DNA from: Nitrosopumilaceae archaeon
Lineage (GTDB): Archaea > Thermoproteota > Nitrososphaeria > Nitrososphaerales > Nitrosopumilaceae
Direction of reading: 5' to 3'
DNA: 64,000 bases
NCBI GenBank assembly: GCA_049414205.1
Contig: JBMSGE010000002.1
Location: 7,207 to 71,206 of the forward strand
The notes beneath the pieces are model-generated. The model was not told the origin of the DNA and did not search any database. It was given only the letters and a program-made list of their open reading frames with translations. Of this stretch, positions 6,286 to 20,311 are shown one piece after another (the first letter of the stretch is position 1; the number at the start of each line of letters is the position of its first letter). Made by a program: the position numbers and the translations under genes.

Positions 6286-6352
6286 AATACCTATTGAGAT
6301 TAAACGTTATAAAAAATAAAAGGCAATTACCAACAAGCGAATTGAATCAATT

Positions 6353-6550
6353 CTATTCTGTTGGCTTTGCCTTTTTTCCACGAGCCTTTGTTCTTAAAAC
6401 AGCCTGACAACATACGCATCTTATTTTTTCCGTAGTTAGAAAAAGCCCACAGAACGTACATCTCTTCTGACCAAGTTTGTATCTCACTCTATTTGGAACA
6501 GGCTCTGCCCTATGCATCACACATATTCCTCTACATGTTCTCCCCATCAC
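6353..6550 (-). CDS. Cys-rich zinc-finger microprotein
   Basis: 65 aa with CRGIC...CTFC...CVCC and a basic tail. Its start overlaps the TFB stop (ATGA). Confidence 0.6.
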   Translation of the reverse strand: MMGRTCRGICVMHRAEPVPNRVRYKLGQKRCTFCGLFLTTEKIRCVCCQAVLRTKARGKKAKPTE

Positions 6551-7449
6551 ATATCACCTCCTATTTTTAGTCGGATTTCTTTTGCTCTATCTCGGATAGT
6601 TACAGGACTGATTCCCGATGCTTCAGCAATTTTAATTTGTGAAATTTTCTCTCCGTTTGAAAGTGAAGCGAGATGAACTACTGCAGCTGCCATTGCCATA
6701 GGGTTTTTGCTGACACTTATTCCATTATCTTGTACAGTTTCCATCATTTTCAGGGCAATCATGCGTGTTTTGTTCCCTGCCCCAACTGCGGTTGCAACTC
6801 GTTCAACAAAATCAATGGGGCTAAAAGTTTCAGGATTAATTTCGAGTTCTTGCATCAGGAATCGGCATGCACCCTGAAGATATTTTCTCTTGACATTTCC
6901 TGCATTGGCAATATCTTGGATAGTTCTAGGAGTGTTTGTCAACCTACATGACATGTATACTGTTGCACACAAAATTCCGATTGTTGAGCGACCACTCAGA
7001 ATTTTTTTTGCAGATGCCTTTCTGAAAAGATATGCAGATTTTTCAACTACAGATTCGGGTAAACCAAGCTTTGCCTTGATTGCATCAAGCATGGTGAATG
7101 CTTTAGTAAAGGATTTTTGCTCTTGCTTGTATCTGCTATTTCTATCCCATAACCGAAGTCTATGAAATGTTCTAGCATTTTCTGAAGAAAGACTTTTCCC
7201 AGTAGAATCTTTGTTGTTTTTCTGAATTACCGTTGATAACCCCATATCGGAAAGCTTGAGTGTTAATTTTCTTCCAACTCTTGTGTTAGACTCGTATTCT
7301 TCTTTGGAGACTCCAACTTGTTCAGGTCCAGTAACTACTGCCTTCTCCAAAATTACAGAGCCGCAACTACCACAAGCAATTTCACCTGTAGAGATATCAG
7401 TTATAGGATATAGGTTCTTGCAGTTTTTTTCATGAATAACAGACATCAA
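6547..7449 (-). CDS. tfb: transcription initiation factor B (TFB/TFIIB) paralogue 1
   Basis: 300 aa with an N-terminal ribbon (ACGSCGSV) and two cyclin-fold repeats. C-terminal HTH is 'IAEASGISPVTIRDRAKEI'. The first Zn knuckle is reduced to a single Cys (NCKN). Confidence 0.9.
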   Translation of the reverse strand: MMSVIHEKNCKNLYPITDISTGEIACGSCGSVILEKAVVTGPEQVGVSKEEYESNTRVGRKLTLKLSDMGLSTVIQKNNKDSTGKSLSSENARTFHRLRLWDRNSRYKQEQKSFTKAFTMLDAIKAKLGLPESVVEKSAYLFRKASAKKILSGRSTIGILCATVYMSCRLTNTPRTIQDIANAGNVKRKYLQGACRFLMQELEINPETFSPIDFVERVATAVGAGNKTRMIALKMMETVQDNGISVSKNPMAMAAAVVHLASLSNGEKISQIKIAEASGISPVTIRDRAKEIRLKIGGDM

Positions 7450-7669: not shown

Positions 7670-7707
7670 TTATTTAAGATGGTGGTAAATTAGGCTACTA
7701 GTGCTAA
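7670..7707 (-). promoter_or_regulatory. promoter of the ZnR-TFB-ZnF operon
   Basis: Minus-strand read: TTAGCACTAG-TAGCCTAATTTACCACCATC-TTAAATAA, then 20 nt to the ATG at 7649. Confidence 0.6.
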
Positions 7708-7748
7708 TTTTATTATAGAAATAAAATTTGAAAAATAAAAAAGGAGGT

Positions 7749-8630
7749 TTAGCTAAGATTCAATGGAATGCTAGCACTTCCCCAAGGTTCGTTTATTCGA
7801 AATACATAATCTTTTGAAGAATCGTATTTGAATTCTGTGCCGCCATATCCGATGTTTGGACCAAAGAATATGTTGAAGGTTCTTGACTCACCTGGTTTGA
7901 TTACAAGTAAGCCACTGGTGAAGTCTGTTGATGCATACTTGAAGGATTTGCTTCCATCCCAGACATCATAATTACACACAGATGGACCTGAGCACATCAA
8001 CTGGAGGTTTTCATTACCAGTATTTTCTACTAACATGTCAATATTCAAGTGAGCATTACCAGATTGAGTAATCTCGACTTCTGCTCCAGGGTAGTAAAAT
8101 ATTGCAGATCCAACATTGTATGTTTCAGAATTGTTTTTAAATTCTAAAACCTTCATTTCATGTTTTACAGCTCTTTCACATTCTAATCGCTCATATGCTT
8201 TCTTGATGCTATTACACTCTTCAAGTTTTGCTTCAAGATTTCCTAATTCTTTACCATCAGAGGATCTAGGTTCTTCTACAGATTTGTCATTTGCACCAAT
8301 TGAAATTAATCCTGACTTTATCAGGAATTGTATTCCTTGCACAAATGATTCATCATCGATATCACCATTTGCCCACCAGGCTGCGTTGTTTTTAACCCAT
8401 TCAGGAACTCCCTGAGATTTTTGTTCAGATACCTGAGTTGGAGGAACCACGATTATTCCATCTTGAATAAGGAATTCGATTCCTTGAATAAATTCGGATT
8501 CAGAGATGGTTCCATCTGCCCACCACCCTGCATTATTTTTGACCCATGCAGGTACAGGCTCAGCGATTGCAAATTGAGCAATAGAACCTATCAATAAAAT
8601 TGCGGCAATTGAAGTAATTGTTGTTTTCAT
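7749..8630 (-). CDS. secreted protein with two tandem 'P(A/E)WVKNNAxWWAxG...F(I/V)QGI(E/Q)FLI' repeats
   Basis: Signal-peptide-like N-terminus (MKTTITSIAAILLIGSIAQFAIA). An internal repeat of about 50 aa is visible in both protein and DNA. Confidence 0.7.
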   Translation of the reverse strand: MKTTITSIAAILLIGSIAQFAIAEPVPAWVKNNAGWWADGTISESEFIQGIEFLIQDGIIVVPPTQVSEQKSQGVPEWVKNNAAWWANGDIDDESFVQGIQFLIKSGLISIGANDKSVEEPRSSDGKELGNLEAKLEECNSIKKAYERLECERAVKHEMKVLEFKNNSETYNVGSAIFYYPGAEVEITQSGNAHLNIDMLVENTGNENLQLMCSGPSVCNYDVWDGSKSFKYASTDFTSGLLVIKPGESRTFNIFFGPNIGYGGTEFKYDSSKDYVFRINEPWGSASIPLNLS

Positions 8631-8650
8631 TGAAACGAATTTGTGTTTAT

Positions 8651-8688
8651 AGTATTTAAAATAGTGCCAAAACCATACCTAGTGCTAA
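8651..8688 (-). promoter_or_regulatory. promoter of 7749..8630
   Basis: Minus-strand read: TTAGCACTAG-GTATGGTT-TTGGCACTAT-TTTAAATACT, then about 20 nt to the ATG at 8630. A third box, TTGGCACTAC, lies at 8704-8713. Confidence 0.6.
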
Positions 8689-8829
8689 AGTCTTTCGAAA
8701 TAATTGGCACTACTCATAAAATTTAGCCCTATTAATTGATCAGAGGAACTAGATGTATCTAAGACACACCTTCCTAATTTAAAAAAAATTAAAAATCAAA
8801 TAGATGTGAAGTCCCATTTTTTCAAATTC

Positions 8830-8868
8830 CTAGTGGTAACGTGGAATTTTTCACTTTGGCTTTATAAA
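8830..8868 (+). promoter_or_regulatory. promoter of the DUF1722 gene (inverted, degenerate box)
   Basis: CTAGTGGTAA (8830-8839), then 21 nt, then TTTATAAA (8861-8868), then 21 nt to the ATG at 8890. Confidence 0.4.
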
Positions 8869-8889
8869 CAAACAATCTCCGTTTAGAAC

Positions 8890-9447
8890 ATGAAAAGAAC
8901 AACGGAAGGTATGACAAAAAGTACTTTTCAGATGCCCAAATTAACTGAAAAAGACATCGCTGAATATGTGTTGGAAAGATTTTATGAACTAAAAGAAGTA
9001 CCTCGTATGCAAGATTTAGTAACTTTTCATTCCAACAATAAGTATCTCATAATGGCCCACAGCCAAGTTCATCTAAAGGAATTGGGTAATGTTGTAGCAA
9101 ATCATGAAAAGCAACCATTAAAAAAAGTCCTAAATGATTACCAAAAAATTCTCATAACAACCCTTAAAATAAAACCCACGGTAAAAACCCACATTAATGC
9201 ATTAATGCATATTTTTGGGTTTTTTGGAAAATATCTAAGTCAAAAAGAAAAATCTATTTTCATGCAATTCATTAAAGGATATAGAGAAGACAAAATAAAA
9301 TTAGGAAAAATATTGTCAGAGATTGAGCCAATTACTTACAAAATAAACAATCTATATTTGATTAGTCAAACTTACTTTCTGTTGTATTCTGATCCCAATA
9401 TGGGGAATGTGTTTAACAGAGTTAGCATAAAATCGTTTAGAGATTAG
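8890..9447 (+). CDS. DUF1722 (YbgA-like) protein
   Basis: 'LVTFHSNNKYLIMAHSQVHLKELG' and 'HINALMHIFGFF...LSQKEK' recall the YbgA/DUF1722 family. In E. coli that gene is linked to the photolyase gene. Confidence 0.65.
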   Translation: MKRTTEGMTKSTFQMPKLTEKDIAEYVLERFYELKEVPRMQDLVTFHSNNKYLIMAHSQVHLKELGNVVANHEKQPLKKVLNDYQKILITTLKIKPTVKTHINALMHIFGFFGKYLSQKEKSIFMQFIKGYREDKIKLGKILSEIEPITYKINNLYLISQTYFLLYSDPNMGNVFNRVSIKSFRD

Positions 9448-9477
9448 ATAGAAAAGAATTTTATTAAAAATTATTTT

Positions 9478-10869
9478 TTAGATAGGTTTGCCTTTGTATT
9501 GGTAATCTATTACCTTGTGGAACAAATTATGAGAGGCAATAATTGCAACCACAGTAATTGCTATCCCCACAAAGTTCCTGATAATAACGGCCTCAGAAGG
9601 CTGAGTTGCAATAAGAGACATCTGAAATACAACATGGAAGTTATCAAATAGCCAAAACGCCATAGTCACCCAGGTTAAGACCCCTGCCATCAAATATCCT
9701 AATCGGGTTTTGTTATACACAAACAATATTGAAAACCCAATTGCAACATACCAAATTCCTGATGCCAATAACCAAAGGGGCTCATATACGTCAGGCCTAT
9801 TATCAAGCCAATAGTAAGTAGAGCCACAAATAGCATATGCAAAAAGACTCACCATGAGAATTTTTTGGTTTATTTTAAATCCAGTTTTCTCTTCTTTTTT
9901 ATTATGATTAGGCGGATTTTTTTGTATTTCTTTAGTTGCAATATCAATTGCATCTCTTACGGATTTTAGATGTAATGGAATTATTTTTTGAATCTCATCG
10001 TTTTGTACTACAGTGTCATGTACTAAGCTGTCAATCAGAGGTCTTGCAAGCGAAGCTTTAACCGGAGTGATAAGATCCACCCAATAAGACGACAATCTAG
10101 TTGTTAAAAATGGGATTTGTAAAATAAACAAATTTTTGTTTAGATATGCAGAGTAAACCCGCATTAATTCCTCATAGGTCATTTTATCAGGACCGCCAAT
10201 ATCATATATTTTCCCTGATGTTTCTTCATGTTCCATGCACCCCACAAGATATTCTACCACATCATCCACTGCAATTGGTTGTGCGAGAGATTTTACCCAG
10301 GAAGGACAGACCATAAATCGTAATCGTTCTACAAGGTATCGTAACATTGCATAAGATCCACCCTCTGCACCAATTATCAATGAAGCTCTAAGTTCTGTAA
10401 CAGGAATCCTTCCAGAGGACAGAATCTCCCCTACTTCTTTTCTACTTTTCATATGTGGAGAAAGTTCATGATCAGTATTGACTAAGCCTCCAAGATAGAT
10501 TATTCGTTTAACACCTGCTTTGGTAGCTGCATTTAAGAAATTTTCTGCCTGAATTTTTTCTCTTGCGGCAAAATCTTTCCATTTTTCTTTGCTTCCTTCC
10601 ATAGAGTGTAGAAGGTAGTATGCAGTTTCTATCCCTCTTAAGGAATTTGTTAATTCTTCCAAATCAAAAACATCAGTTTTTACAAATTTAATTTGAGGTC
10701 TGTCACCTATTTCTTTTCTAGACATTCCTTTTACAGAATAGCCTCTTTTAACAAGAGAATCAAGTAAGCGAGATCCAATAAAACCGGTAGCGCCTGTGAC
10801 CATTATAGAGTAAGGGCTTTTTTGCATAGACGCTACCTTCTCAATTTCTTGTTTCAATTTAAATTGCAC
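9478..10869 (-). CDS. NAD(P)-binding NmrA/SDR-like oxidoreductase with a C-terminal multi-TM domain
   Basis: Rossmann motif VTGATGFIGSRL near the N-terminus. About 4 hydrophobic helices occupy the last 130 aa or so. Confidence 0.8.
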   Translation of the reverse strand: MQFKLKQEIEKVASMQKSPYSIMVTGATGFIGSRLLDSLVKRGYSVKGMSRKEIGDRPQIKFVKTDVFDLEELTNSLRGIETAYYLLHSMEGSKEKWKDFAAREKIQAENFLNAATKAGVKRIIYLGGLVNTDHELSPHMKSRKEVGEILSSGRIPVTELRASLIIGAEGGSYAMLRYLVERLRFMVCPSWVKSLAQPIAVDDVVEYLVGCMEHEETSGKIYDIGGPDKMTYEELMRVYSAYLNKNLFILQIPFLTTRLSSYWVDLITPVKASLARPLIDSLVHDTVVQNDEIQKIIPLHLKSVRDAIDIATKEIQKNPPNHNKKEEKTGFKINQKILMVSLFAYAICGSTYYWLDNRPDVYEPLWLLASGIWYVAIGFSILFVYNKTRLGYLMAGVLTWVTMAFWLFDNFHVVFQMSLIATQPSEAVIIRNFVGIAITVVAIIASHNLFHKVIDYQYKGKPI

Positions 10870-11092
10870 CCACTCTAGTTGGTTTTTCTCGTTTTCTCTC
10901 TCGTTTTACTTTGAGTCCAAATCCAATTGTTGCTGCGCCTATGGCCGTCCAGAATATGCCTCCCATTCCATATGCAGAATGTAAGGTATAATCCAATTCT
11001 CCAGCAATTGCAAATCCTGCGCCTAATGCGGTAATTACACCACCAGCTGTTACTATCGTTTTATCCAAAAATTTCACCTCCCACAAATTCAA
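10859..11092 (-). CDS. small membrane protein (start uncertain)
   Basis: Gly/Ala-rich TM helices. Overlaps the downstream gene by 11 nt. An alternative TTG at 11068 is preceded by GGAGGTGA. Confidence 0.5.
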   Translation of the reverse strand: MNLWEVKFLDKTIVTAGGVITALGAGFAIAGELDYTLHSAYGMGGIFWTAIGAATIGFGLKVKRERKREKPTRVGAI

Positions 11093-11183
11093 AATTTTGA
11101 GTTTTGGTCAGTGTTTGTTTGTTATCGTCTTGTTTTTCAATTATGTTATCATGTGTTTTCATGATAGTAGTGTTGTTTTTATT

Positions 11184-11221
11184 TTATTTAAACTGGTGGT
11201 AAATTTTCTCTCTAGTGCTAA
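11184..11221 (-). promoter_or_regulatory. promoter of the 11162/11092-9478 operon
   Basis: Minus-strand read: TTAGCACTAG-AGAGAAAATTTACCACCAGT-TTAAATAA, then 21 nt to the ATG at 11162. Nearly the same module as at 7670-7707. Confidence 0.6.
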
Positions 11222-11275
11222 TATGAAGATAGAGGAGTGGTTTAGATAGACGATGCTGATAAGATTGTAAACAAA

Positions 11276-11312
11276 TTAGCACTAGGTTTCTTTATTGGCA
11301 TTTATTAAATAC
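11276..11312 (+). promoter_or_regulatory. promoter of the B12-binding regulator gene
   Basis: TTAGCACTAG-GTTTCTTTA-TTGGCATTTA-TTAAATAC. This lies inside the 5' end of the ORF-track model, so the real start is probably the in-frame TTG at 11337. Confidence 0.55.
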
Positions 11313-12179
11313 AAGATACTAAAAAGGAGAAATGGCTTGGTATACATTAGAGCAAAAAAGATCAAAGGAGATCAGTACCTATACCTCGTAAAAAGTGTCT
11401 GGGATAAACAAAAAAACACATCTAGGCAGGAAATTGTAAAGTATCTAGGAAAGGCCTCTTCAGTAGTTAAAGACGACATTCCTCCTGATTATAGGAATGA
11501 TCCCAAAATCATATCATTTTTGTCAGCTTACAATCCCGAAGATATGAAAAAAAGAGAGGAGGCAAGGAAAAAAACTCAAGATATACTATATAAAAAATTC
11601 ACCCAAGGAGACATCAAAGCTTCTTTAAAAATTTTTGAAGATTACGAGAAACTATTCAGTACAGCCGACTTTTTTGACAAGATCTTAAGATCAGTGATGC
11701 ATAAAATTGGGGATGATTGGGCAAATAACAAAATCAGTATAGCAACAGAACATGTAGCATCAAACGTGGCGCAAGGATTAGTGAAAATAATAATGGACAG
11801 GAATCAAGGTGAGTCAAGTAAGAAGAAGGTTCTAATTTGCATTCCTCAAGGAGAGGAACATCGCTTAGGGTGTGATGTTTTGGAAACTTTTCTTAGTTCA
11901 AAAGGTTTCAAAGTATACAATCTTGCAAATGGAGCTCCAAATGAATCGATAGTTAGCTTTGTCGAAACAACCAAACCTGATGTTATTTTTGTATCAATCA
12001 CATTGGATGATAATATTAAACCTGGTCAGCGTCTTGTAAAGAAAATTTCTGATTCTTTTGACGTTCCAATTTTTGTTGGAGGTTTTGCTTTAGAAAATGA
12101 AAAAACACCAAAGTTCAATGCCACTGTGTTGAAGGATATTTCATTGGAGCAGATTCCGAGAATAATAAAAGCTGCTTGA
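11295..12179 (+). CDS. CarH-like cobalamin (AdoB12)-binding photoreceptor-type protein with a non-MerR N-terminal domain
   Basis: W-x9-EH (DDWANNKISIATEH), then 36 residues to E-x-H-x-x-G (GEEHRLG), then SxL (VSITL) and GG (VGGFAL). This gives B12-binding_2 plus B12-binding domains. The likely true start is TTG 11337: (M)VYIRAKKIKGDQYLYLVKS. Confidence 0.8.
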   Translation: MAFIKYKILKRRNGLVYIRAKKIKGDQYLYLVKSVWDKQKNTSRQEIVKYLGKASSVVKDDIPPDYRNDPKIISFLSAYNPEDMKKREEARKKTQDILYKKFTQGDIKASLKIFEDYEKLFSTADFFDKILRSVMHKIGDDWANNKISIATEHVASNVAQGLVKIIMDRNQGESSKKKVLICIPQGEEHRLGCDVLETFLSSKGFKVYNLANGAPNESIVSFVETTKPDVIFVSITLDDNIKPGQRLVKKISDSFDVPIFVGGFALENEKTPKFNATVLKDISLEQIPRIIKAA

Positions 12180-12180
12180 C

Positions 12181-13539
12181 CTAAACTGTAGAGATTACAA
12201 ATTTTTGTTTTTGCAAGTATTCCATAATCTTTGGATAGCATAAAAGCGAGCTGTGAGCAGCCGAATCTGTCCCTATCCCATAACTCACAGTAGAATCCCC
12301 AATAAAGAAAAGTCCATCAACACCTTTTACTTGATGAGGCATTTTGGATTTCCATACTTTGCCAGGTTTTTTTACAACAGATTCCACTAAACTCCAAGCC
12401 ATAGGTCTTTCCCATAACAGGGACTTTTCAAAATCAGGATAGATGTGATTGATTTCATTTTTCATTTTTTCTACAGTTTCCTTGATTTTTTGTACATTTT
12501 TTACATGATCTGGTGGGACAGGAGTTCCAGCAATTATGAGGTGTTCTCCTCGAGGAGAGACTTTTGGAGTCATATTAGATATAAAGAAAATTCCCTTAGC
12601 AGTGTAATGTTTTCCAACTGGAAATACAACATGTCTTTTATCCAATTTTTTAGATAGTGCAAAATGAACTTCTATTACAGCGGTAGTATCATTAAGGGTA
12701 TTGACCTTTTGAATGAATTTTTGATCAAAAACTTTCTTGTCAAACAATTGATTTATTGCATGATATGCAGGATAAGAAATAACAACACAATCATGCTTGT
12801 GGAAATTTCCATGCTGATCAATTAATCCCGTTACACGTCCATCTTGAACTATTATTCTTTTAATTGAATTTTTTAAGAATACTTTGTTTTTGTTTATTTC
12901 AATATAGTCTTTCAAAATTTTAGAAATCTTGTCATATCCACCTTCAGCAGGATATGCAAACTCACTAGTTCCCCCTTTGAATGGGTTTGCTCGAATTATT
13001 GTTCGTGTGAATTCACCTAAAGAGATATTTTTTGCCGAATCTGCAAAGGCCAGCATACATACAGCCTCGAAAAAAGCATTTGTTTTCTCATCTAGATTTT
13101 TCGTAATATCCAAAAGAGAAGTATCATCCCATGATTCTGTCTTTTCCATAGAAGAAAAGGCCAAGGGTATTAGGATTTTTAATAAAGATAGTCTACTTTT
13201 GAAAGGAACCATAGATAATTTCAATAAATCAAGAATCCCCTTTGGATAAAGATGAAATTTATCTCCTGAAAAAAAGGCTATATCGTCAACTTTTTCTAAT
13301 TTCAAGTGCGATTCAATACCAATTCTTTTCAAAATTTTGTAAATTGCAGATTGTGTGTAAAATGGCATAATATGAAATCCATTATCTAGCAGATGCCCCT
13401 TATAGTAGATGGAGGCAGTTCTACCACCCACCTTGCCATATTTTTCATATATCTCAGTCGATATTTTTTGTTTTGTTAAAAGGGCACCCAAGGTTAATCC
13501 ACCCACACCTGCACCAATTATGGCGACGTTATTTTTCAA
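12181..13539 (-). CDS. FAD-dependent oxidoreductase, phytoene-desaturase (CrtI/CrtD) family
   Basis: N-terminal dinucleotide fold VAIIGAGVGGLTLGALL...E. 452 aa with C-terminal 'FFIGDSTVSYGIG'. Confidence 0.8.
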   Translation of the reverse strand: MKNNVAIIGAGVGGLTLGALLTKQKISTEIYEKYGKVGGRTASIYYKGHLLDNGFHIMPFYTQSAIYKILKRIGIESHLKLEKVDDIAFFSGDKFHLYPKGILDLLKLSMVPFKSRLSLLKILIPLAFSSMEKTESWDDTSLLDITKNLDEKTNAFFEAVCMLAFADSAKNISLGEFTRTIIRANPFKGGTSEFAYPAEGGYDKISKILKDYIEINKNKVFLKNSIKRIIVQDGRVTGLIDQHGNFHKHDCVVISYPAYHAINQLFDKKVFDQKFIQKVNTLNDTTAVIEVHFALSKKLDKRHVVFPVGKHYTAKGIFFISNMTPKVSPRGEHLIIAGTPVPPDHVKNVQKIKETVEKMKNEINHIYPDFEKSLLWERPMAWSLVESVVKKPGKVWKSKMPHQVKGVDGLFFIGDSTVSYGIGTDSAAHSSLLCYPKIMEYLQKQKFVISTV

Positions 13540-13559
13540 TATACAGTATAGGAGGTTTT

Positions 13560-13598
13560 TGTATATATGCAGTTAGCATTATCATCTTATAGTGCCAA
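13560..13598 (-). promoter_or_regulatory. promoter of the CrtI-like gene
   Basis: Minus-strand read: TTGGCACTAT, then 21 nt, then TATATACA, then 20 nt to the TTG at 13539. Confidence 0.5.
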
Positions 13599-13605
13599 CG
13601 GCAAT

Positions 13606-14049
13606 CTAAACAACAGCATTTTGATTTACCTCACAACTATGAATAAATTCATCCATGATTTTGTTTATTTTTTTTTCAATAAAGAATTTTGCAGGATAAA
13701 GAAGTTTAAAGAATCCGTTAAACTTTAACTGTACTTTTATTTCCACTTTTGTTCCATCATCTAATTCTTCATAACATTCAAGAAAAGATGAGCCAGTAAG
13801 AGGTCCAGACAAAATATTAATTTCGTGAATATTTGGCTTTGAAATTTTATGTTTAGTTTGAACCCTTAGAGAAGTTCCCAAAAATGAAAGATCTTCATCA
13901 ACAAAAATTTCTGAATTTATAATTTTGGTTATGCGCAAAGAGCGAAAATAATTAGGCATCAAATTTGAAAAATTTTCAATATCCGTACTAATCTCAAAAA
14001 TTTTTTTTCTATCAACATGAGTGTTTCTAGATATTTTAAGAATTAGCAT
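13606..14049 (-). CDS. SRPBCC/polyketide-cyclase-like protein
   Basis: 147 aa with an SRPBCC-like pattern (IFEISTDIENFSNLMPNYF...). Overlaps the upstream ORF by 7 nt. Confidence 0.6.
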   Translation of the reverse strand: MLILKISRNTHVDRKKIFEISTDIENFSNLMPNYFRSLRITKIINSEIFVDEDLSFLGTSLRVQTKHKISKPNIHEINILSGPLTGSSFLECYEELDDGTKVEIKVQLKFNGFFKLLYPAKFFIEKKINKIMDEFIHSCEVNQNAVV

Positions 14050-14408
14050 GATATTGAGACCTTTGACAAATAATCTTGTAAATTGGTTTTCCCAATAGGT
14101 AAATCAGGATACAGTTTTTTAATGAAATCACATAAAAGTACCATGCTTATTTTCACTGAATCAGTTTTTTTCGGATCGGTTAATGGGTACAACCTTATTG
14201 TTGTTTTGCCCTTACTTGCCAATACTTCAATGAAAAACTCTTGGCTTTCTTGATCAATTACAAGAGTGTGAACTAGTGCATTTTTCTTAGACGAGCTAAC
14301 ATACATTTCTTTGAGCCGTATTATACAAGGATTTTTTTTAAGTATGACTTGAAATTGACCTTGGATTTTCTCAAGATCCACATCCCCATTTAGAACTATG
14401 TGAGGCAT
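14043..14408 (-). CDS. hypothetical protein
   Basis: 121-aa ORF lying in an operon between the Zn-ribbon ORF and the SRPBCC gene. Confidence 0.55.
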   Translation of the reverse strand: MPHIVLNGDVDLEKIQGQFQVILKKNPCIIRLKEMYVSSSKKNALVHTLVIDQESQEFFIEVLASKGKTTIRLYPLTDPKKTDSVKISMVLLCDFIKKLYPDLPIGKTNLQDYLSKVSISC

Positions 14409-14443
14409 TTTATCCTCACCATACTAGAAAACACCATTTACCA

Positions 14444-14623
14444 TCACACTGTGAACAATTTTTCCTTGAATTCATCAACAAACATGTAGACTTTGCATCT
14501 AGTACATGCCAAGAAATCTTTTGATTTTTTCCCCCCAGTGGCAGTTACTAGGACTAATGCCTTGCGTCGACATTTAGGACATTCGGCCTCAAGGTCTCTT
14601 CTGTTCGAGTATTGTAAATTCAT
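14444..14623 (-). CDS. zinc-ribbon microprotein (59 aa, below the track cutoff)
   Basis: Own translation: MNLQYSNRRDLEAECPKCRRKALVLVTATGGKKSKDFLACTRCKVYMFVDEFKEKLFTV. The ATG lies exactly 20 nt after a module-type TATA. Confidence 0.55.
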   Translation of the reverse strand: MNLQYSNRRDLEAECPKCRRKALVLVTATGGKKSKDFLACTRCKVYMFVDEFKEKLFTV

Positions 14624-14643
14624 AGACTTACTTGGCTAAAATG

Positions 14644-14680
14644 ATATTTAACTAATGCCAACTAAAATTTATAGTGCTAA
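14644..14680 (-). promoter_or_regulatory. promoter of the 14623-13606 operon
   Basis: Minus-strand read: TTAGCACTAT-AAATTTTAG-TTGGCATTAG-TTAAATAT, then 20 nt to the ATG at 14623. Confidence 0.6.
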
Positions 14681-14770
14681 TTTTTCAAAAATATGAATTG
14701 GAAATTAACTAAATGTTTTTACTTTTCTAATTAAAGAATCCTATTTAGATAATTTGTACAAATATAACTT

Positions 14771-15034
14771 ATGAAAAAAATTATTCCTTTTCTCATGGTT
14801 GGAATTCCATTATGTTTATCAGTGATATTCATTGTAAATACCATAGAGTCGCAAACATTTCCATTGTTAAGGGACGATACATTAACTGATGAGGAAAATA
14901 TTCATCAAACCTACAAATCAGGTTTGGAATATTGTAAAAAATCATACCAACCTACAATTATTTCTGAAAATAATGAATTCAAAAAATGTATAGATTCAGT
15001 TGAAAAGTGGTATTTGAAAAATAAACAAAAATAG
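14771..15034 (+). CDS. small secreted or membrane-anchored protein
   Basis: 87 aa with the hydrophobic N-terminus MKKIIPFLMVGIPLCLSVIFIV. Confidence 0.45.
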   Translation: MKKIIPFLMVGIPLCLSVIFIVNTIESQTFPLLRDDTLTDEENIHQTYKSGLEYCKKSYQPTIISENNEFKKCIDSVEKWYLKNKQK

Positions 15035-15071
15035 GATTTAACTTAGAATTGGTAATAAACTACAATTATAA

Positions 15072-15617
15072 TTATTGTATATTGAATTTTTTCTTCAAAG
15101 TTTTTCCCATTAATTGAAGAGAAAATCTGCATACAGATGGGTTAAGTGTAAAAAATCCCCTAAATTTTCCGTCCTCAAATTCTTCGGCAATTAGTCCAAA
15201 GGGACCATAAGGACCTCTTGTAATTACACTCCACACATTTACGAGATCAGTGTTTTTGCAGTTAATTATCTCAATTTTAGAAGGTGTTTCTATTGTGGTT
15301 TTACCAAAATTGGCAATAACCCAAATTTTAGGAATTTTTTCGACCATTTGTTGGTATCTTTTTTCTACAAATTTGTACCTCGCTATTTCTTCAAAAGTTG
15401 CAAGCAATGGCTCTCCATTTTCTTTGGCATATTTTTCTATTAGAGTGCTAAGATGGTACAGAGGTTTTCTATCTGCATGAAAATTATGATATCCCTTTTC
15501 AATGAAATCATCAAATTTCCAAAGAGGGAGTTTAGATTCATCTAAGTTATGCCATTCAGCGAGTTGAGGAAATTCTTCCCATACCTTTCCAACAAAACCA
15601 GAATAAGGAGAGGACAT
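15072..15617 (-). CDS. hypothetical protein
   Basis: 181-aa ORF with globular composition. I recognise no motif with confidence. Confidence 0.55.
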   Translation of the reverse strand: MSSPYSGFVGKVWEEFPQLAEWHNLDESKLPLWKFDDFIEKGYHNFHADRKPLYHLSTLIEKYAKENGEPLLATFEEIARYKFVEKRYQQMVEKIPKIWVIANFGKTTIETPSKIEIINCKNTDLVNVWSVITRGPYGPFGLIAEEFEDGKFRGFFTLNPSVCRFSLQLMGKTLKKKFNIQ

Positions 15618-15715
15618 ACTTTGTTATTTTCATGATAACATTTAAGGAAATCTTTTAAAATCTAGATCTTGCTTCGACGAAATTGTTTTTATGCAATAAT
15701 TCTATTAGATAGGTA

Positions 15716-16120
15716 ATGTCTCGATATGAAAAAATGTTAAACATGATAATGGATTTTAATAGTTCCATAAGGTTGGCAGTGATAAGCGATACTGCAGGGG
15801 ACATTCTTTGGAATTCTAAAAGAAAAGATGTTACTTTAAAAATTCCACTTTCTGAAACCAAAAAAGCTCTCAAACGAGAAGCATCCGATTGGGTAGAGAG
15901 ATGCAAACTAGAAGATAGCAGCAACATAGGAAGAGGAATGTATAACATTACATCCTTTGAAAAGATAAAGAGAATATCAATACCAATTGATGCATTTCAT
16001 CTGCTATTCATCAGTGTAGATAACGAGCCTCTAAAAAAGAGTAAAACAAAAAGCTATGGGAAATTAGTAGAAATGGGAAAAATAATGTCCATAGTAGACT
16101 TTGCAAATACTTTTGAATAA
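15716..16120 (+). CDS. paralogue family A member 1 (possibly roadblock/LC7-like fold)
   Basis: About 50% identical to 21545..21943 and more distantly related to 32365..32721. 'IRLAVISDTAGDILW' resembles a roadblock-type beta-strand. Confidence 0.65.
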   Translation: MSRYEKMLNMIMDFNSSIRLAVISDTAGDILWNSKRKDVTLKIPLSETKKALKREASDWVERCKLEDSSNIGRGMYNITSFEKIKRISIPIDAFHLLFISVDNEPLKKSKTKSYGKLVEMGKIMSIVDFANTFE

Positions 16121-16155
16121 AAACAAAAATACAAAATTTTTTAATTTTTAATAAT

Positions 16156-16524
16156 CTAAATTTGTTCACTTAGTTTTTTTAATTTTTTGACATCAGTAAT
16201 TTCAATATGGTTGCTAAGAGTTACAATTTTTGCTAATTTTGGATTAGCATCTTTTCCCAATTTTAGTACAGTGTCACCCCTGAATCTTATTTCCATAGTA
16301 ATGTTTTGTTGGCTAAGATTTTTGGCAAGATTTTTGGCTTGAGAAAGTTGCTTTATCAATCCAGGTTTTTTAGAAAGTGTGATTGGAATTTCGAGTATAT
16401 CAAGAATTCTGGAATTTCCCAGAGTTTGAAAATTAATAGACGGAGTATTATTTGTAGAAATTTGTACAGCACCTTTTTCTAAATAAGTTAAAAAATTGGC
16501 GGAGAGGTTTTTTTCCATTCTCAT
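16156..16524 (-). CDS. hypothetical protein
   Basis: 122-aa ORF lying 5 nt downstream of 16530..16715. Confidence 0.5.
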   Translation of the reverse strand: MRMEKNLSANFLTYLEKGAVQISTNNTPSINFQTLGNSRILDILEIPITLSKKPGLIKQLSQAKNLAKNLSQQNITMEIRFRGDTVLKLGKDANPKLAKIVTLSNHIEITDVKKLKKLSEQI

Positions 16525-16529
16525 CCTAC

Positions 16530-16715
16530 CTACTTTGCAGTAATTGTCAGTTTTCCATTTAAGGAAACTGTTCCTGTGGGAACTATTTTGCCACCTTTTT
16601 CAACCTTGCCTTTCATTTCCAAATCATCAAACGCATAAGTGATGGAGGCATGTTTTTGGGTCAGTTTGTCAAAAACTTCTGCTAGCAAATTAGCCCATTC
16701 TTGTTCTTCAGTCAT
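16530..16715 (-). CDS. hypothetical small protein
   Basis: 61 aa. The ATG lies 20 nt after a module-type TATA. Confidence 0.5.
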   Translation of the reverse strand: MTEEQEWANLLAEVFDKLTQKHASITYAFDDLEMKGKVEKGGKIVPTGTVSLNGKLTITAK

Positions 16716-16735
16716 AAAGTCTGTTTGTTAGCATA

Positions 16736-16772
16736 ATATTTAACCTAGTGATAAATTTTGTACTAGTGCCAA
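16736..16772 (-). promoter_or_regulatory. promoter of the 16715-16156 operon
   Basis: Minus-strand read: TTGGCACTAG-TACAAAAT-TTATCACTAGG-TTAAATAT, then 20 nt to the ATG at 16715. Confidence 0.6.
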
Positions 16773-16915
16773 TTTTTGAAAAACAACATATTAACGATTA
16801 GATTTGAATTATTTTGCAACTGCAAAATTAATGTTAGTGTGAGTTTTAATTATTAAAAAATTTTAATCTATTTTCTTACTGTTGTAAAAAATTGTTTGGA
16901 TTTTAAAAATAGAAT

Positions 16916-16951
16916 TTAACACTAGAAAAGTTATTGGTCTTTGTATAAATT
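16916..16951 (+). promoter_or_regulatory. promoter of TFB paralogue 2
   Basis: TTAACACTAG, then 18 nt including TTGGTCTTTG, then TATAAATT, then 21 nt to the ATG at 16973. Confidence 0.5.
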
Positions 16952-16972
16952 TTGTAAACACCATAATAGAGC

Positions 16973-17875
16973 ATGAGCAAAAAAAGTCAAAAAAAGATTT
17001 GCAAACATGGTTTGGTAATTACAGATTTTGTCACAGGTGAAATTTCATGTGGGCATTGTGGAGTAGTAATATCAGAGAAAAATGTTGTCATAGGTCAAGA
17101 AACTACAGGTCATGCCAATAACGAGTATCAAGGAATGGTAAGAACGGGACAACAAATTTCATTAAAAATGGCAGACATGGGATTGTCCACCATAATCGAA
17201 TCTCAAGACAAGGATTCTTCTGGAAAATCTCTTTCTGTAGACAATAAAAGATCCTTTTATCGATTAAGAATGTGGGACAGGAATAGCAGACATGCCATTA
17301 CAAATCAATCATTTGTTAGTGCATTTACACTACTAGATGGAATAAGATCTAAATTGGCTTTGCCAGATCATGTGGTAGAGAAAACGGCATATATTTTTAG
17401 AAAAGCTCATCAAAAAAAACTCTTACCGGGACGTTCAACTCAGGTTATTTTATGCGCATCCGTTTATTTGGCATGCAGGATGACAGATACGCCGCGAACG
17501 CTTACAGATATTGCTGTTGCCGCAGGAGTGAAAAAGAAGGCAGTGCAACGAGCATATCGTTTCCTTACAAGAGAATTAGGAGCATATACCAAGGCCTACA
17601 ATCCGAGCGAATTTGTCTCAAGAATTTCAAATGAAGTTAGGATTTCAGAAAAATCAAAATCATATGCCCGAGAAATTCTGAAGTTAGGTAACGAAAAGGG
17701 AATTACCGAAGGTAAAAATCCAATGTCTATGGCAGCAGCCGCTGTGTATTTGGCTGTTAAAAAAAATCATGAGAAAATTCCGCAGACACGAATTTCAATA
17801 GCAGCTGGAATTAGCGCAGTAACCATTAGAAACAGAGTAAAAGAATTACTTGTGATTGAGAGAAAGGAGCATTAG
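16973..17875 (+). CDS. tfb: transcription initiation factor B (TFB/TFIIB) paralogue 2
   Basis: 300 aa and about 50% identical to 6547..7449. Ribbon is CKH...CGHCG, followed by two cyclin folds. C-terminal 'IAAGISAVTIRNRVKEL'. Confidence 0.9.
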   Translation: MSKKSQKKICKHGLVITDFVTGEISCGHCGVVISEKNVVIGQETTGHANNEYQGMVRTGQQISLKMADMGLSTIIESQDKDSSGKSLSVDNKRSFYRLRMWDRNSRHAITNQSFVSAFTLLDGIRSKLALPDHVVEKTAYIFRKAHQKKLLPGRSTQVILCASVYLACRMTDTPRTLTDIAVAAGVKKKAVQRAYRFLTRELGAYTKAYNPSEFVSRISNEVRISEKSKSYAREILKLGNEKGITEGKNPMSMAAAAVYLAVKKNHEKIPQTRISIAAGISAVTIRNRVKELLVIERKEH

Positions 17876-17908
17876 CACTAGTTACCATTTTTATCACTAG
17901 TTAAATAT
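17872..17908 (+). promoter_or_regulatory. promoter of 17930..18313
   Basis: TTAGCACTAG-TTACCATTT-TTATCACTAG-TTAAATAT, then 21 nt to the ATG at 17930. The distal box overlaps the TFB2 stop codon. Confidence 0.6.
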
Positions 17909-17929
17909 TATTACAGCGTAAATGCAATC

Positions 17930-18313
17930 ATGACAGCACTAGTACAAAAAATAGAAACACAACCTCCAAAGTTAGAACCATATTTTTATCAATTCTTTCA
18001 GGACGTTGTAAATACAATGCCAGTAGTTGATCCTGAGCTTCTCATACGTGTGATGATGTTTCAGGTTAATCTAAAAAAATACCCTGGCCCAGATATTCCT
18101 CACGTGAATCTCTATGTCAAATACAAAGAAGGCGTCAACCTACATCAAAAACAAGAAGAAGGTAGAGACACCTATCCATTTGAAGTAACTACAAGCAGAT
18201 GGGGAGACGGAGTAATTTTCTCAGGACTGATGAATATTGGAACTGTCGAATCTGTATGTTCAGATCCTGATATTGTCGAAGTTACAGGAGAAGCAAAACC
18301 TACACATAATTAA
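17930..18313 (+). CDS. hypothetical protein
   Basis: 127-aa ORF with a module-type promoter. Confidence 0.55.
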   Translation: MTALVQKIETQPPKLEPYFYQFFQDVVNTMPVVDPELLIRVMMFQVNLKKYPGPDIPHVNLYVKYKEGVNLHQKQEEGRDTYPFEVTTSRWGDGVIFSGLMNIGTVESVCSDPDIVEVTGEAKPTHN

Positions 18314-18331
18314 AAGTAGAAGTTTTTCCAC

Positions 18332-18351
18332 TAGGGGTATTTTTACCCCTA
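18332..18351 (+). terminator. 8-bp hairpin after 17930..18313
   Basis: TAGGGGTA-TTTT-TACCCCTA. A T-rich tract follows further downstream. Confidence 0.3.
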
Positions 18352-18440
18352 TACCACATTTTCTAATTTTCACATCTTTTTCATTTTAGGTGATTTTTTT
18401 AAAAAAGTCATAAGTTTTTAATTATTAATTTTTTTAATTT

Positions 18441-19217
18441 TCAAGCCCAGGAGATAATTTTTTGGTTATGGTTTGAAAAACCCAAAAACATCCCTAATGT
18501 GATTCTGGAGGATGGCCCTTGAATTTTTGTTACTTCATGATACTTTAAAGGATTGATTAGCACCAAATCCCCCTCCTCAATATTTGTGATTTTGCAAGAT
18601 TCTTCTGAAGAAGTCAATTCTGAAGAATATCCAAAGTCTATTTTACGGAATTTTTCATCAGATCTCATCCAATTTCTTCGATAGACTATCAAATCACCAC
18701 CTGCTTCGGATTTTTGTAGGTGTAGAACGCAAGAGAGCTGGCCATCAAGGTTTGCAATAGAGTATTCTTTTCCTTCATAGTTCACATGATCTTTGTGAAG
18801 GGGAATCGATTTCCCCATTTCATGAATACGAATGATGAATGGAGAGAATTCATCACCTGATTCATGGGCTAATGTGATTTCAGATTCAGGGAAAACGACC
18901 TTGAGCATTTTAAAAATCTTATTTGTCGGAATTTGAGATGAACCAAAAATAAAATCAAACTTTGAGTTGGCAATTTTTACCTGTTCAAAATATTCTCTTT
19001 TTTTTGTTGTATACGACATTAGAAATGGGCCGATATGAGTTAACTTTTCATTTTGGAAATTATTTTCAGGCATACTAAGAATTCTATCAGAGATAAATTT
19101 ACAATACTCTTTTTCATAAAATTGCTTTAAAATTATTGCAGGCACCTTGCCGAAGATTAAAGAGTCATAATCAATCTTGTTCCAATCAGGTTTGTTTACA
19201 ATTAGAGGTTCCCACAC
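18441..19217 (-). CDS. 2OG-Fe(II) oxygenase superfamily protein
   Basis: HxD...H facial triad candidates (PLHKDH ... KYHEV) plus RITLGMF (Rx[ST]-like). GTG start overlaps the upstream stop by 1 nt. Confidence 0.65.
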   Translation of the reverse strand: MWEPLIVNKPDWNKIDYDSLIFGKVPAIILKQFYEKEYCKFISDRILSMPENNFQNEKLTHIGPFLMSYTTKKREYFEQVKIANSKFDFIFGSSQIPTNKIFKMLKVVFPESEITLAHESGDEFSPFIIRIHEMGKSIPLHKDHVNYEGKEYSIANLDGQLSCVLHLQKSEAGGDLIVYRRNWMRSDEKFRKIDFGYSSELTSSEESCKITNIEEGDLVLINPLKYHEVTKIQGPSSRITLGMFLGFSNHNQKIISWA

Positions 19218-19504
19218 TAATACCCACCAACACCAGAATGTGAAACTTTGGCCAGAAGAACTCCTCCGTCATCACGTACATCTATCTCACATTTTAGAAA
19301 GGCATCTTTTATGCAATCTGAAAGGGTTTCAGAGGTCCAATCTTTTTGTTCGTGCGGAAATCCAGGTAGGTCAGCAGACGTTATTCTAATTTTTTCAGAG
19401 TCTGAGTAAGTCATCTTGTTTCCATTTTTTCTATGGGTAACATTGAGAATAAATGAATCCTGTGAAAGAGTTTGTGAACCATGTCCCCAAATTATATCTG
19501 TCAT
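19217..19504 (-). CDS. hypothetical protein (shortened from the track model 19217..19561)
   Basis: The ATG at 19504 (MTDIIWGHG...) lies 20 nt after TTATATCT. The longer model would run through the promoter box. Confidence 0.5.
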   Translation of the reverse strand: MTDIIWGHGSQTLSQDSFILNVTHRKNGNKMTYSDSEKIRITSADLPGFPHEQKDWTSETLSDCIKDAFLKCEIDVRDDGGVLLAKVSHSGVGGY

Positions 19505-19524
19505 GAGGTACTTTTGATGTTTTA

Positions 19525-19564
19525 AGATATAACCATAATATAGAATAATTGAATTTAGCACTAG
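19525..19564 (-). promoter_or_regulatory. promoter of the 19504-18441 operon (box in inverted orientation)
   Basis: Minus-strand read: CTAGTGCTAA, then 22 nt, then TTATATCT, then 20 nt to the ATG at 19504. Confidence 0.45.
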
Positions 19565-19706
19565 AAGTATGTTTTTAGCAATTAAAAGTCTCAGTACCTA
19601 AAAATTTTACGATAGGATGATTTCTTACTGATTGCCATCTAGGTTCCTTTTTCCTTTCAACATGTTTATGATCCTATTTCTGAGAAAAGGTAGTTCATCA
19701 TTTATT

Positions 19707-20141
19707 TCAAATATCTTTCATACGGTTGGTATAGTCATAGTGGAAGATTTTTTTAGGCGTAATTTCGATTGCAACTTCTGATTTCGATTTAATTTTTAAG
19801 AATTTTGAAAGTGTGGAATCTTTTTTCCCCAAATATTTGTCAATAAGAAGTTGCAAAATTTCATTTCCTCTTTCTTCAACAATTCGTGCTTTACCCTCCC
19901 CTCGTGCTCCTTTGTAAGGGGGTTTGTCTCCTGCTATTTCAAAACCACATGAGGGGTTGTTTTGTAAATAAGATACTATTTTTGCACTTTTCTGTGTGGC
20001 ACAGAAAAGTTTACCGCCAATTTCAACATACCATAATGACAGAACAGATGGTACACCGCTAGGTTTTAGATACGCGAGTCTTATTGGAATTTTTTTATCA
20101 GAAATTAACTCATCGATTTTTGCATTTTCTAATTTTTGCAA
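19707..20141 (-). CDS. pyridoxamine 5'-phosphate oxidase-like FMN-binding split-barrel protein
   Basis: 144 aa. The pattern 'IRLAYLKPSGVPSVLSLWY...LFCATQKSAKIV' is typical of the PPOX/general-stress-26 family. Confidence 0.7.
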   Translation of the reverse strand: MQKLENAKIDELISDKKIPIRLAYLKPSGVPSVLSLWYVEIGGKLFCATQKSAKIVSYLQNNPSCGFEIAGDKPPYKGARGEGKARIVEERGNEILQLLIDKYLGKKDSTLSKFLKIKSKSEVAIEITPKKIFHYDYTNRMKDI

Positions 20142-20254
20142 ATTTCCTTACCTCCACAAACTCTGGCCACATATTTTGAGTAACAATAATCACATGACCA
20201 ATCATGAAAATGTTTACCGCAATTTTTGCATTTTTGAATAGTGATTAGACTCAT
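20129..20254 (-). CDS. zinc-finger microprotein (41 aa)
   Basis: Own translation: MSLITIQKCKNCGKHFHDWSCDYCYSKYVARVCGGKEICKN. The ATG lies 20 nt after a module-type TATA. Confidence 0.45.
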   Translation of the reverse strand: MSLITIQKCKNCGKHFHDWSCDYCYSKYVARVCGGKEICKN

Positions 20255-20274
20255 ATTGTATTTTTGTGGTTTTC

Positions 20275-20311
20275 ATATTTTAATAGTGTTGAAGTTCCCA
20301 ACTAGTGCTAA
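20275..20311 (-). promoter_or_regulatory. promoter of the 20254-19707 operon
   Basis: Minus-strand read: TTAGCACTAG-TTGGGAACT-TCAACACTAT-TAAAATAT, then 20 nt to the ATG at 20254. Confidence 0.6.

Follow-up and report, generated by a model that had tools for sequence, protein, structure and literature searches.

A two-box promoter element shared by a conserved gene block of ammonia-oxidizing archaea, and a CarH-type B12-binding protein as its candidate regulator

The DNA analysed here, called the window below, is a stretch of 64,000 nucleotides from a Nitrosopumilaceae archaeon (GenBank assembly GCA_049414205.1, contig JBMSGE010000002.1, positions 7,207 to 71,206 of the forward strand); positions are counted from its first letter, and + and - denote the strand. 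The window has a G+C content of 30-39 % and encodes plastocyanin-like proteins, Usp proteins and several TFB genes. Between 7.7 and 20.3 kb lies a block of about 12 transcription units whose promoters share one element, in most cases two related boxes upstream of the TATA element, and the link between this element and this set of genes is exclusive. One of the units encodes a B12-binding protein of 280 amino acids (aa) (11337..12179, +; PF02607 and PF02310), which is the candidate regulator. Judged from the DNA and its translations, the boxes are probably the switch for a light-response programme in ammonia-oxidizing archaea (AOA).

Promoter modules and the genes behind them

Read in the orientation of the gene, the distal 10-mer TT(A/G)(A/G)CACTA(G/T) begins at -57 to -61 relative to the start codon. 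A second, weaker copy, the proximal box, follows 18-19 nt downstream and begins at -38 to -42, and it abuts a TATA element, mostly TTAAATA, that begins at -28 to -32. A preliminary description of this DNA had proposed such a shared layout for ten starts, and the upstream regions bear it out at all of them (7649, 11162, 8630, 14623, 16715, 17930, 20254, 16973, 11337 and 13539), as they do the inverted box that it reported for starts 8890 and 19504, which lies at -60. Other details had to be revised. At 7649 and 11162 the second box was said to be replaced by AATTTACCACCA; the sequence there, TTACCACCA, is a degenerate copy of the box at the same position (scores 11.0 and 12.9) and a common variant elsewhere. 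A second box does exist at 13539, inverted as TAATGCTAA rather than arranged as a direct repeat. The gene of the B12-binding protein, previously placed at 11295-12179, starts at 11337: its close homologues are all about 280 aa long and begin with MVYIR, and 11295-11311 is occupied by the proximal box and the TATA element.

A position weight matrix was built from all module instances, and the window was scanned with it for box pairs 17-21 nt apart; the pair scores given below come from this matrix. Related loci retrieved for comparison carry L-numbers (L001, L002 and so on), L140 being Nitrosarchaeum koreense MY1 (AFPU01000001.1). The leftmost module (7671..7707, -) consists of the distal box TTAGCACTAG at 7698-7707, the proximal box TTACCACCA and TAAATA (pair score 27.5), with orthologous modules in L001-L004 and L105. 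Behind it lie a 67-aa Zn-ribbon open reading frame (ORF; 7446-7649) and, as the second gene of the operon, TFB paralogue 1 (6547..7449, -), which matches the Pfam TFIIB repeat (E 2.2e-26) and the NCBIfam TFIIB model (E 4.8e-69). The highest-scoring module (8653..8688, -; pair score 31.0), with TTAGCACTAG at 8679-8688, TTGGCACTAT at 8661-8670 and TTTAAATA, precedes the gene of a secreted 293-aa protein (7749-8630, -). This protein contains two copies of a P(A/E)WVKNNA(G/A)WWA(D/N)G...F(I/V)QGI.FLI motif and matched no known family. An extra box, TTGGCACTAC (8704..8713, +), faces the distal box of the 8630 module head-to-head; it lies 186 nt before the start of a DUF1722 (YbgA-like) gene (8890-9447) and is kept in L001 (7367+) and L002 (5544+). 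The promoter of the DUF1722 gene itself (8830..8868, +) combines an inverted box (CTAGTGGTAA, 8830-8839) with a weak direct one (TTTTCACTTT) and TTTATAAA.

Two divergent modules occupy the space between 11162 and 11337. The module on the left (11185..11221, -; distal TTAGCACTAG at 11212-11221, proximal TTACCACCA, TTTAAATA; pair score 29.4) serves a 33-aa ORF, a 77-aa ORF and a 463-aa protein resembling short-chain dehydrogenases/reductases (SDR) and NmrA (9478-11162), and has orthologues in L001-L003 and L140. The module on the right (11276..11311, +) belongs to the B12-binding protein gene and comprises TTAGCACTAG at 11276-11285, the proximal box TTGGCATTT and TTAAATA. Further along, a flavin adenine dinucleotide (FAD) amine-oxidase/CrtI-like gene (12181-13539) follows a module (13562..13598, -) with the distal box TTGGCACTAT at 13589-13598, the inverted proximal box mentioned above, which is conserved in L001, L003 and L004, and TATATA. 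A 59-aa Zn-ribbon ORF, a 121-aa ORF and an SRPBCC protein (13606-14623) lie behind the module at 14645..14680 (-; TTAGCACTAT at 14671-14680, TTGGCATTA, TTAAATA; pair score 28.2), and ORFs of 61 and 122 aa (16156-16715) behind that at 16737..16772 (-; TTGGCACTAG at 16763-16772, TTATCACTA, TTAAATA; pair score 28.5).

TFB paralogue 2 (16973..17875, +; Pfam TFIIB repeat E 7.2e-35, NCBIfam TFIIB E 9.9e-75) is preceded by a module at 16916..16949 (+) that has the distal box TTAACACTAG at 16916-16925, a weak proximal box TTGGTCTTT and TATAAA (pair score 15.9). The gene of a 127-aa protein (17930-18313) follows a module at 17872..17907 (+; TTAGCACTAG at 17872-17881, TTATCACTA, TTAAATA; pair score 28.4). 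Just downstream, at 18325..18352 (+), the box pair TTTCCACTAG N8 TTACCCCTAT (pair score 20.5) is not followed by an ORF. A 106-aa ORF does follow the corresponding site of L002 (17384+), and the pair in the window is probably the relic promoter of a lost regulon gene. The operon of a 95-aa ORF and a WelO5-like 2-oxoglutarate/Fe (2OG/Fe) oxygenase (18441-19504) has a promoter (19527..19564, -) with one box only, inverted (19555-19564, TTAGCACTAG on the + strand), at -60 to -51 and no recognisable proximal box; the same type of inverted box occurs at equal distance in L002 (20278+) and L004 (15684+). The last module (20278..20311, -; TTAGCACTAG at 20302-20311, TCAACACTA, TTAAAA; pair score 21.8) precedes a 41-aa CxxC ORF and a PPOX-like flavoprotein (19707-20254).

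Enrichment and structure of the element

The 10-mer TTRRCACTAK occurs 13 times in the 64-kb window, against 1.01 +/- 1.05 expected from 100 dinucleotide-preserving shuffles, the richest of which contained 5. Twelve of the 13 matches fall between 7698 and 20311, and these 12 are all intergenic. In the matrix scan the 12 best box pairs likewise lie inside 7.7-20.3 kb; the best pair outside the block, at 56393, scores 15.0, and random sequence of equal size averages 15.2. The preliminary description had found no paired module in intergenic regions outside about 7.6-22.5 kb, which the scan supports, since nothing rises above noise outside 7.7-20.3 kb. It had also argued for a dedicated DNA-binding factor or a TFB-specific upstream element rather than chance, and chance can indeed be excluded because 13 matches stand against 1.0 expected and the module is absent outside the block. 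Ten promoters outside the block have no box upstream of TATA, a small comparison (5 inside against 10 outside) that shows absence outside only.

The similarity between the promoters is confined to the boxes and the TATA element. The boxes carry 1-2.6 bits per position, values inflated by selection with a regular expression, as against about 0 bits in flanks and spacers. An independent repeat finder recovered the modules as families of 27-57 nt with 70-78 % identity that end at the promoter; because they are short and end there, they are not duplicated DNA segments. The distal box, at -57 to -48, is conserved better than the proximal one. The box is near-palindromic (TAGC|ACTA), and the inverted orientation is tolerated at the 13539, 8890 and 19504 promoters and kept across genomes at 13539 and 19504. 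We speculate that this tolerance could mean that each box takes a dimer. Judged by the distance from TATA to ATG, the genes appear to be leaderless in Nitrosopumilaceae.

A fixed third box upstream of the distal box was considered and rejected: direct and inverted boxes are found there at scattered distances, and most of them come from divergent partner promoters. An explanation at the RNA level was rejected as well. Rfam finds one tRNA only in the window, and transcription is inferred to start downstream of the element.

Conservation in related genomes and metagenomes

A genome scan with the B12-binding protein retrieved 19 loci, those of Nitrosopumilaceae with 68-87 % identity and those of Nitrososphaeraceae or 'Thermoproteota' metagenome-assembled genomes (MAGs) with 38-48 %. 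Nitrosopumilaceae MAGs of the Candidatus Nitrosomaritimum type come closest (78-87 % identity of the B12-binding protein), and together with the G+C content and the genes named at the outset this marks the window as chromosomal DNA of an AOA. The block is syntenic in Nitrosopumilaceae. Nitrososphaeraceae keep only a core of it: the B12 gene, which is always present, the SDR and a 190-aa membrane protein. The fetched flanks of these loci contain no TFB gene.

Orthologous genes of both families have the two-box module in front of them. It was found 51 times in the window and 13 loci, 14 sequences in all; the boxes are 19 nt apart in 30 of these modules, 18 nt in 12 and 20 nt in 8, and the proximal box begins 11-12 nt before TAAATA. 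When the B12-gene promoters of six Nitrosopumilaceae are aligned, the invariant columns upstream of the start codon are, with one exception, the two boxes and the TATA element, and the spacers differ. When homologues of the B12 gene are selected solely on protein similarity, the promoters of 16 of the 18 contain the module, including those of Nitrososphaeraceae with 41-48 % protein identity, where it takes the form TTAGCACCAG-N9-(G/T)TACCACTAA. In L009-L017, which are Nitrososphaeraceae, the module of the B12 gene is 72-88 nt from the start, compared with 57-61 nt in the other family; a short 5' leader would therefore exist there, unlike in the apparently leaderless genes of Nitrosopumilaceae.

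A metagenome scan for TTAGCACTAG-N18-21-TTAAATA returned at least 120 loci. Among the matches listed, to which the metagenome figures that follow also refer, about half of the loci contain homologues of the block genes, and the remainder are mostly single chance matches in coding DNA of unrelated G+C, or tandem repeats. We grouped the ORFs behind the 139 modules of all retrieved sequence, metagenome matches included, into families. The secreted protein is the commonest (33 modules), followed by the B12 gene (23), the 190-aa membrane protein (12), the amine oxidase (10), TFB (8), a 104-aa family (7) and the Zn-ribbon/TFB operon (6). In other lineages, TFB genes thus stand directly behind full modules in 8 of the 139 cases. 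Boxes kept over diverged spacers in orthologous promoters, both in sister genomes and in a second family, and a pattern scan that leads mainly to the same gene set and not to unrelated genes speak for the element proposed in the preliminary description, on the very points that it had named as able to refute it.

L077, L123 and L129, which have many boxes and no block genes, were discarded as tandem repeats or repetitive coding sequence of unrelated organisms. L077 is an unrelated metagenomic contig whose positions 6100-6810 are made up of tandem repeats of about 17 nt (TAGCACTAGTGTAAGTA), and the box sequence occurs there by coincidence.

A cultured carrier of the system is Nitrosarchaeum koreense MY1 (L140; B12-binding protein WP_007549934.1), whose B12 gene, SDR operon and secreted-protein gene all have modules in front of them. 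Directly after the DUF1722 gene of its cluster, a called gene of 46 aa (8222-8362) matches PF00875 (DNA photolyase) and looks like a photolyase remnant. E. coli pairs ybgA with phr in a similar way. At 3351-6278 of the same locus, 2-6 kb from the B12-sensor cluster, are genes for tetrapyrrole synthesis (glutamyl-tRNA reductase, ALAD and a siroheme-type NAD_binding_7 protein).

The B12-binding protein

Residues ~100-270 of the 280-aa protein form a B12-binding module of the CarH/photocobilin type, with a helical bundle and a Rossmann fold (PF02607, B12-binding_2, E 2.4e-08; PF02310, B12-binding, E 1.9e-10). The best NCBIfam match is TransRegCarH (E 1.3e-15), which covers the B12 part only and at 57.5 bits is far under the 400-bit cut-off. 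The best matches among sequences of the PDB are the photocobilins 8j2y and 8j2w and the CarH entries 5c8a, 5c8d and 8c35, all ahead of methionine synthase. A Foldseek search with the AlphaFold2 model, which has a predicted local distance difference test (pLDDT) score of 81.5 for the whole protein, also puts photocobilin and CarH on top (E 1e-8 to 1e-10). Light-sensing B12 domains are marked by the signature GxxW, EH, GxxH and GxxxP, of which the W-x9-EH and GxxH motifs cap the adenosyl group (PMC11796333). The 280-aa protein has GDDW, TEH at the W-x9-EH spacing and GEEH, with ANGAP in the place of GxxxP, and its B12 module appears to be of the light-sensor (CarH) type.

The N-terminal 40 residues, MVYIRAKKIKGDQYLYLVKSVWDKQKNTSRQEIVKYLGKA, contain 10 Lys/Arg and 3 Asp/Glu, and residues 2-39 are predicted to form a three-stranded antiparallel beta sheet (AlphaFold2; pLDDT 86.1 for the domain alone). 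No other part of the protein is as well conserved as the N-terminal 45 aa, where identity between the two families is 58-67 %; it drops to 41-47 % in the B12 domain and to about 30 % in the linker. The domain sits where CarH has its DNA-binding domain. A profile search found it in 410 clusters, many of them fused to a B12 module; other proteins that contain it are about 160-190 aa long with a C-terminal domain of no assigned family, and it is fused once to an HNH nuclease and once to an AbiEii toxin (Diapherotrites archaeon). Taken together, these features suggest a DNA-binding domain. The best matches below significance were a PC4-like protein (E 0.46) and a Holliday-junction resolvase (E 0.05), and we do not claim a known fold; tblastn found no paralogue of the domain in the window. 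The domain, MVYIR...YLVKS.W...KYLG (P0274, P0304, P0278 and related proteins), belongs to a wider archaeal domain family that has no name.

Comparison with known regulatory systems

The closest parallels are the CarH and LitR regulators of Thermus, Myxococcus, Bacillus megaterium and Streptomyces. They share with the archaeal protein the two-part B12 module of helical bundle and Rossmann fold, the W-x9-EH and GxxH motifs, and a DNA-facing domain, putative in the archaeal case, that is N-terminal to the sensor. The regulator gene is among the targets in both, and the archaeal gene appears to be autoregulated, given the module in its own promoter at 16 of 18 homology-selected loci. Adenosylcobalamin-loaded CarH tetramers bind to three or four direct repeats overlapping the -35 or -10 element and dissociate in light (PMC9304148). 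The putative archaeal operator resembles that arrangement as a direct repeat overlapping the core promoter, with the weaker copy on the TFB recognition element (BRE) beside TATA. The light regulon of Pseudomonas LitR includes a photolyase, a short-chain dehydrogenase, an FAD oxidoreductase and proteins without assigned function, and the SDR and FAD oxidoreductase have counterparts among the putative archaeal outputs (PMC9758184).

The differences concern the DNA side. CarH and LitR have a winged helix of the MerR type, whereas the archaeal N-terminus is predicted to be a three-stranded beta sheet and matched neither MerR nor another helix-turn-helix (HTH) domain. The archaeal boxes are 10-mers (TTAGCACTAG) in two copies 18-19 bp apart, in contrast to three or four tandem 11-bp nnnnTnnACAn units. 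The archaeal promoter is of the BRE/TATA type, the putative operator is present at about 12 promoters, and carotenoid genes are not among the genes served. As judged in silico, the protein departs from CarH and LitR in its putative DNA-binding domain and operator architecture, and apart from the irregular GxxxP element it is CarH-like in the other features that can be tested in this way.

Other systems share parts of the picture. In the LitR-LitS and CarQ-type cascades of bacteria, light controls an alternative sigma factor. The putative light-sensing regulator of the archaeal block would similarly control the genes of initiation factors, the two TFB paralogues, and these might redirect RNA polymerase to a second set of promoters; in place of sigma factors, however, the archaeal factors are homologues of TFIIB. 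Induction of a TFB paralogue is also part of an archaeal radiation response, the TFB3-dependent UV response of Sulfolobus (PMC6101591). TFB3 is a truncated TFB induced by DNA damage, in a different archaeal order, and neither a B12 sensor nor a comparable two-box operator is known to be described for that response. The proximal box lies directly upstream of TATA, at the position of the archaeal BRE. The BRE is a single element, whereas here the stronger copy recurs 18-19 bp further upstream and is also found inverted. With the photocobilins 8j2w and 8j2y the archaeal B12 domain has its closest similarity in sequence and fold, and it differs from them in having no bilin-binding or GGDEF output domain. 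The archaeal protein differs from AerR in its extra N-terminal domain, which is conserved, basic and 40 residues long.

Proposed regulon and alternative explanations

We infer binding of the boxes by the B12-binding protein, light as the signal and repression as the effect. The evidence leans towards the two-box module being the operator of a factor dedicated to one conserved AOA regulon, most likely the 280-aa CarH/LitR-like B12-binding protein (11337-12179). In the dark, the adenosylcobalamin-loaded protein would form an oligomer whose basic N-terminal beta-sheet domains would occupy the strong distal box (-57 to -48) and, through cooperation, also the weaker proximal one (-39 to -30). Since the latter lies exactly at the place where TFB contacts the BRE, directly beside TATA, its occupancy would block the assembly of TBP and TFB. 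Light would photolyse the Co-C bond, the oligomer would dissociate, and the freed proximal site would allow about 12 apparently leaderless transcription units to be derepressed together. The outputs would be the gene of the regulator itself, the two TFB paralogues, the 463-aa SDR, the FAD amine-oxidase/CrtI-like protein, the YbgA-like DUF1722 protein, the SRPBCC protein, the PPOX-like flavoprotein, the 2OG/Fe oxygenase and the secreted protein. By their position behind modules, both TFB paralogues are counted as outputs of the proposed regulon, TFB paralogue 1 because it is the second gene in the operon behind the 7707 module. They may form a second regulatory tier, akin to the sigma factors under the control of bacterial LitR or CarH. 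More tentatively still, the system may be the first archaeal B12 photoreceptor transcription factor, with a new beta-sheet DNA-binding domain, a two-box operator over the BRE and a light switch in marine/estuarine and soil AOA families that also turns on alternative TFBs.

Several points weigh against this proposal. The weakest step is the direction of the effect, as a two-site element upstream of TATA could also recruit TBP and TFB. Two-site upstream activating sequences of the Ptr2 type are found in archaea, and a site upstream of BRE and TATA could equally serve an activator. At a spacing of 18-19 bp the two boxes face different sides of the DNA, which sets them apart from the 11-bp repeats of CarH. 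The N-terminal domain had no significant match in Pfam (E up to 10), the PDB or the predicted viral structures of BFVD by Foldseek, or in a profile search of PDB sequences, and the case for its binding DNA consists of its charge, position, conservation and fusion partners. The fourth element of the light-sensing signature, GxxxP, reads ANGAP in the window and GTSMP in Nitrosarchaeum homologues. The block contains no intact photolyase or carotenoid gene, so a light-protective role of the outputs is a guess. Finally, the control sequence outside the block amounts to about 51 kb of the window plus the flanks of the loci, and the metagenome loci were selected by the motif, which makes the 18 homology-selected loci the unbiased test.

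A different transcription factor might bind the boxes. The B12-binding protein would then simply belong to the regulon, or it would modulate that factor in response to light or B12 without contacting DNA, and its N-terminal domain would be a protein-interaction module. We consider this unlikely, though it deserves to be taken seriously: the N-terminal domain lacks a recognisable DNA-binding fold, and the small Zn-ribbon ORFs and several proteins without assigned function in the block are still candidate DNA binders. B12-domain co-regulators that work through a separate DNA-binding protein are known, such as AerR, which acts on CrtJ in Rhodobacter (PMC9144470). However, among genes with a sensor domain only the B12 gene goes with the module in both archaeal families, and domain searches of the block proteins found no HTH, Lrp, TrmB or similar regulator in the block. 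We also counted for direct binding that the N-terminal domain, which is basic, is better conserved than the sensor domain, in parallel with the conserved box.

The preliminary description had left open whether the module serves a dedicated factor, with the B12-binding protein as a candidate, or is a TFB-specific upstream element, and the analysis favours the former and disfavours the latter. On a TFB-based explanation the boxes would form an extended BRE or an upstream promoter element that is recognised by one TFB paralogue of the block or by both, giving a TFB-specific regulon like that of an alternative sigma factor, with positively autoregulated TFB genes. The position of the proximal box, exactly that of the BRE and abutting TATA, would fit, as would the modules at both TFB paralogues of the block and at TFB genes of other Nitrosopumilaceae (8 directly and 6 via the Zn-ribbon operon). 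We nevertheless judge it improbable, since the better-conserved box is the distal one, about 20 bp beyond the BRE and beyond the reach of TFB, and since Nitrososphaeraceae keep the module with no TFB gene in the fetched flanks. In TFB-BRE-TATA complexes TFB contacts about 6-7 bp adjoining the TATA box. A box that is repeated directly and sometimes inverted also fits an oligomeric factor rather than one TFB.

The B12-binding protein might also bind the operator and report the supply of cobalamin or the redox state instead of light, so that a metabolic regulon is tuned to the availability of the cofactor. AOA produce cobalamin, tetrapyrrole synthesis genes adjoin the cluster in N. koreense, and the imperfect GxxxP element and the lack of intact photolyase or carotenoid genes in the block would suit such a role. 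This is quite improbable in our view: every one of the closest solved relatives is a photoreceptor, the putative outputs are like those of light regulons in bacteria, and the N. koreense cluster has a photolyase remnant attached. Light-sensing B12 domains, moreover, cap the adenosyl group with just the W-x9-EH and GxxH motifs seen here (PMC11796333). A non-functional origin of the similarity, by chance, recent duplication of promoters or a small mobile repeat, would find some excuse in an AT-rich genome where TATA-proximal sequence is naturally alike between promoters, but it is refuted by the 13 matches, a number that 0 of 100 shuffles reach against 1.0 expected, by flanks and spacers of about 0 bits with similarity that stops at the promoter, and by boxes kept in orthologous promoters over family-level divergence.

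Implications

AOA carry out much of global nitrification. Light is known to inhibit their nitrification; this sensitivity is well documented, and its basis is still debated (PMC8788347). In the literature that was searched, with many subscription papers outside its reach, we found no B12 photoreceptor, CarH/LitR homologue, light sensor, light regulon or such a motif for AOA or other archaea. The element and the protein make the basis of the light sensitivity of AOA directly testable, and the test system is cheap and concrete: a 280-aa protein, a 40-bp operator with defined boxes and the cultured carrier N. koreense MY1. If the proposed regulon is real, it would extend B12-based photoregulation from bacteria to archaea, define a new family of DNA-binding domains, offer a clean example from nature of TFB paralogues working as a regulated second layer in the control of transcription, and yield marker genes for the light exposure of AOA in metatranscriptomes. 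The combination of a B12 domain with a compact, putatively new DNA-binding domain could also interest optogenetics.

Small leading genes and the edge of the block

Small ORFs head the operons at starts 11162 (33 aa), 20254 (41 aa), 14623 (59 aa), 16715 (61 aa) and 7649 (67 aa). Three of the module-driven operons begin with tiny CxxC zinc-ribbon ORFs, all on the - strand (7446-7649, 67 aa; 14444-14623, 59 aa; 20129-20254, 41 aa). The 67-aa ORF weakly resembles the zinc ribbon of TFIIB (E 0.0025), and its translation is coupled to that of TFB paralogue 1. Frameshifts were considered at 11061-11162/10859-11092 and 20129-20254/19707-20141 and rejected, as leading ORFs of 27-44 aa recur there in related loci; the small leading ORFs at 11061-11162 and 20129-20254 are therefore probably real small genes, not broken ones. 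Just beyond the block, after Usp and DnaJ-domain genes, a gene without a module encodes a sensor protein with dCache, HAMP and adenylate/guanylate cyclase domains (23828-25591, +).

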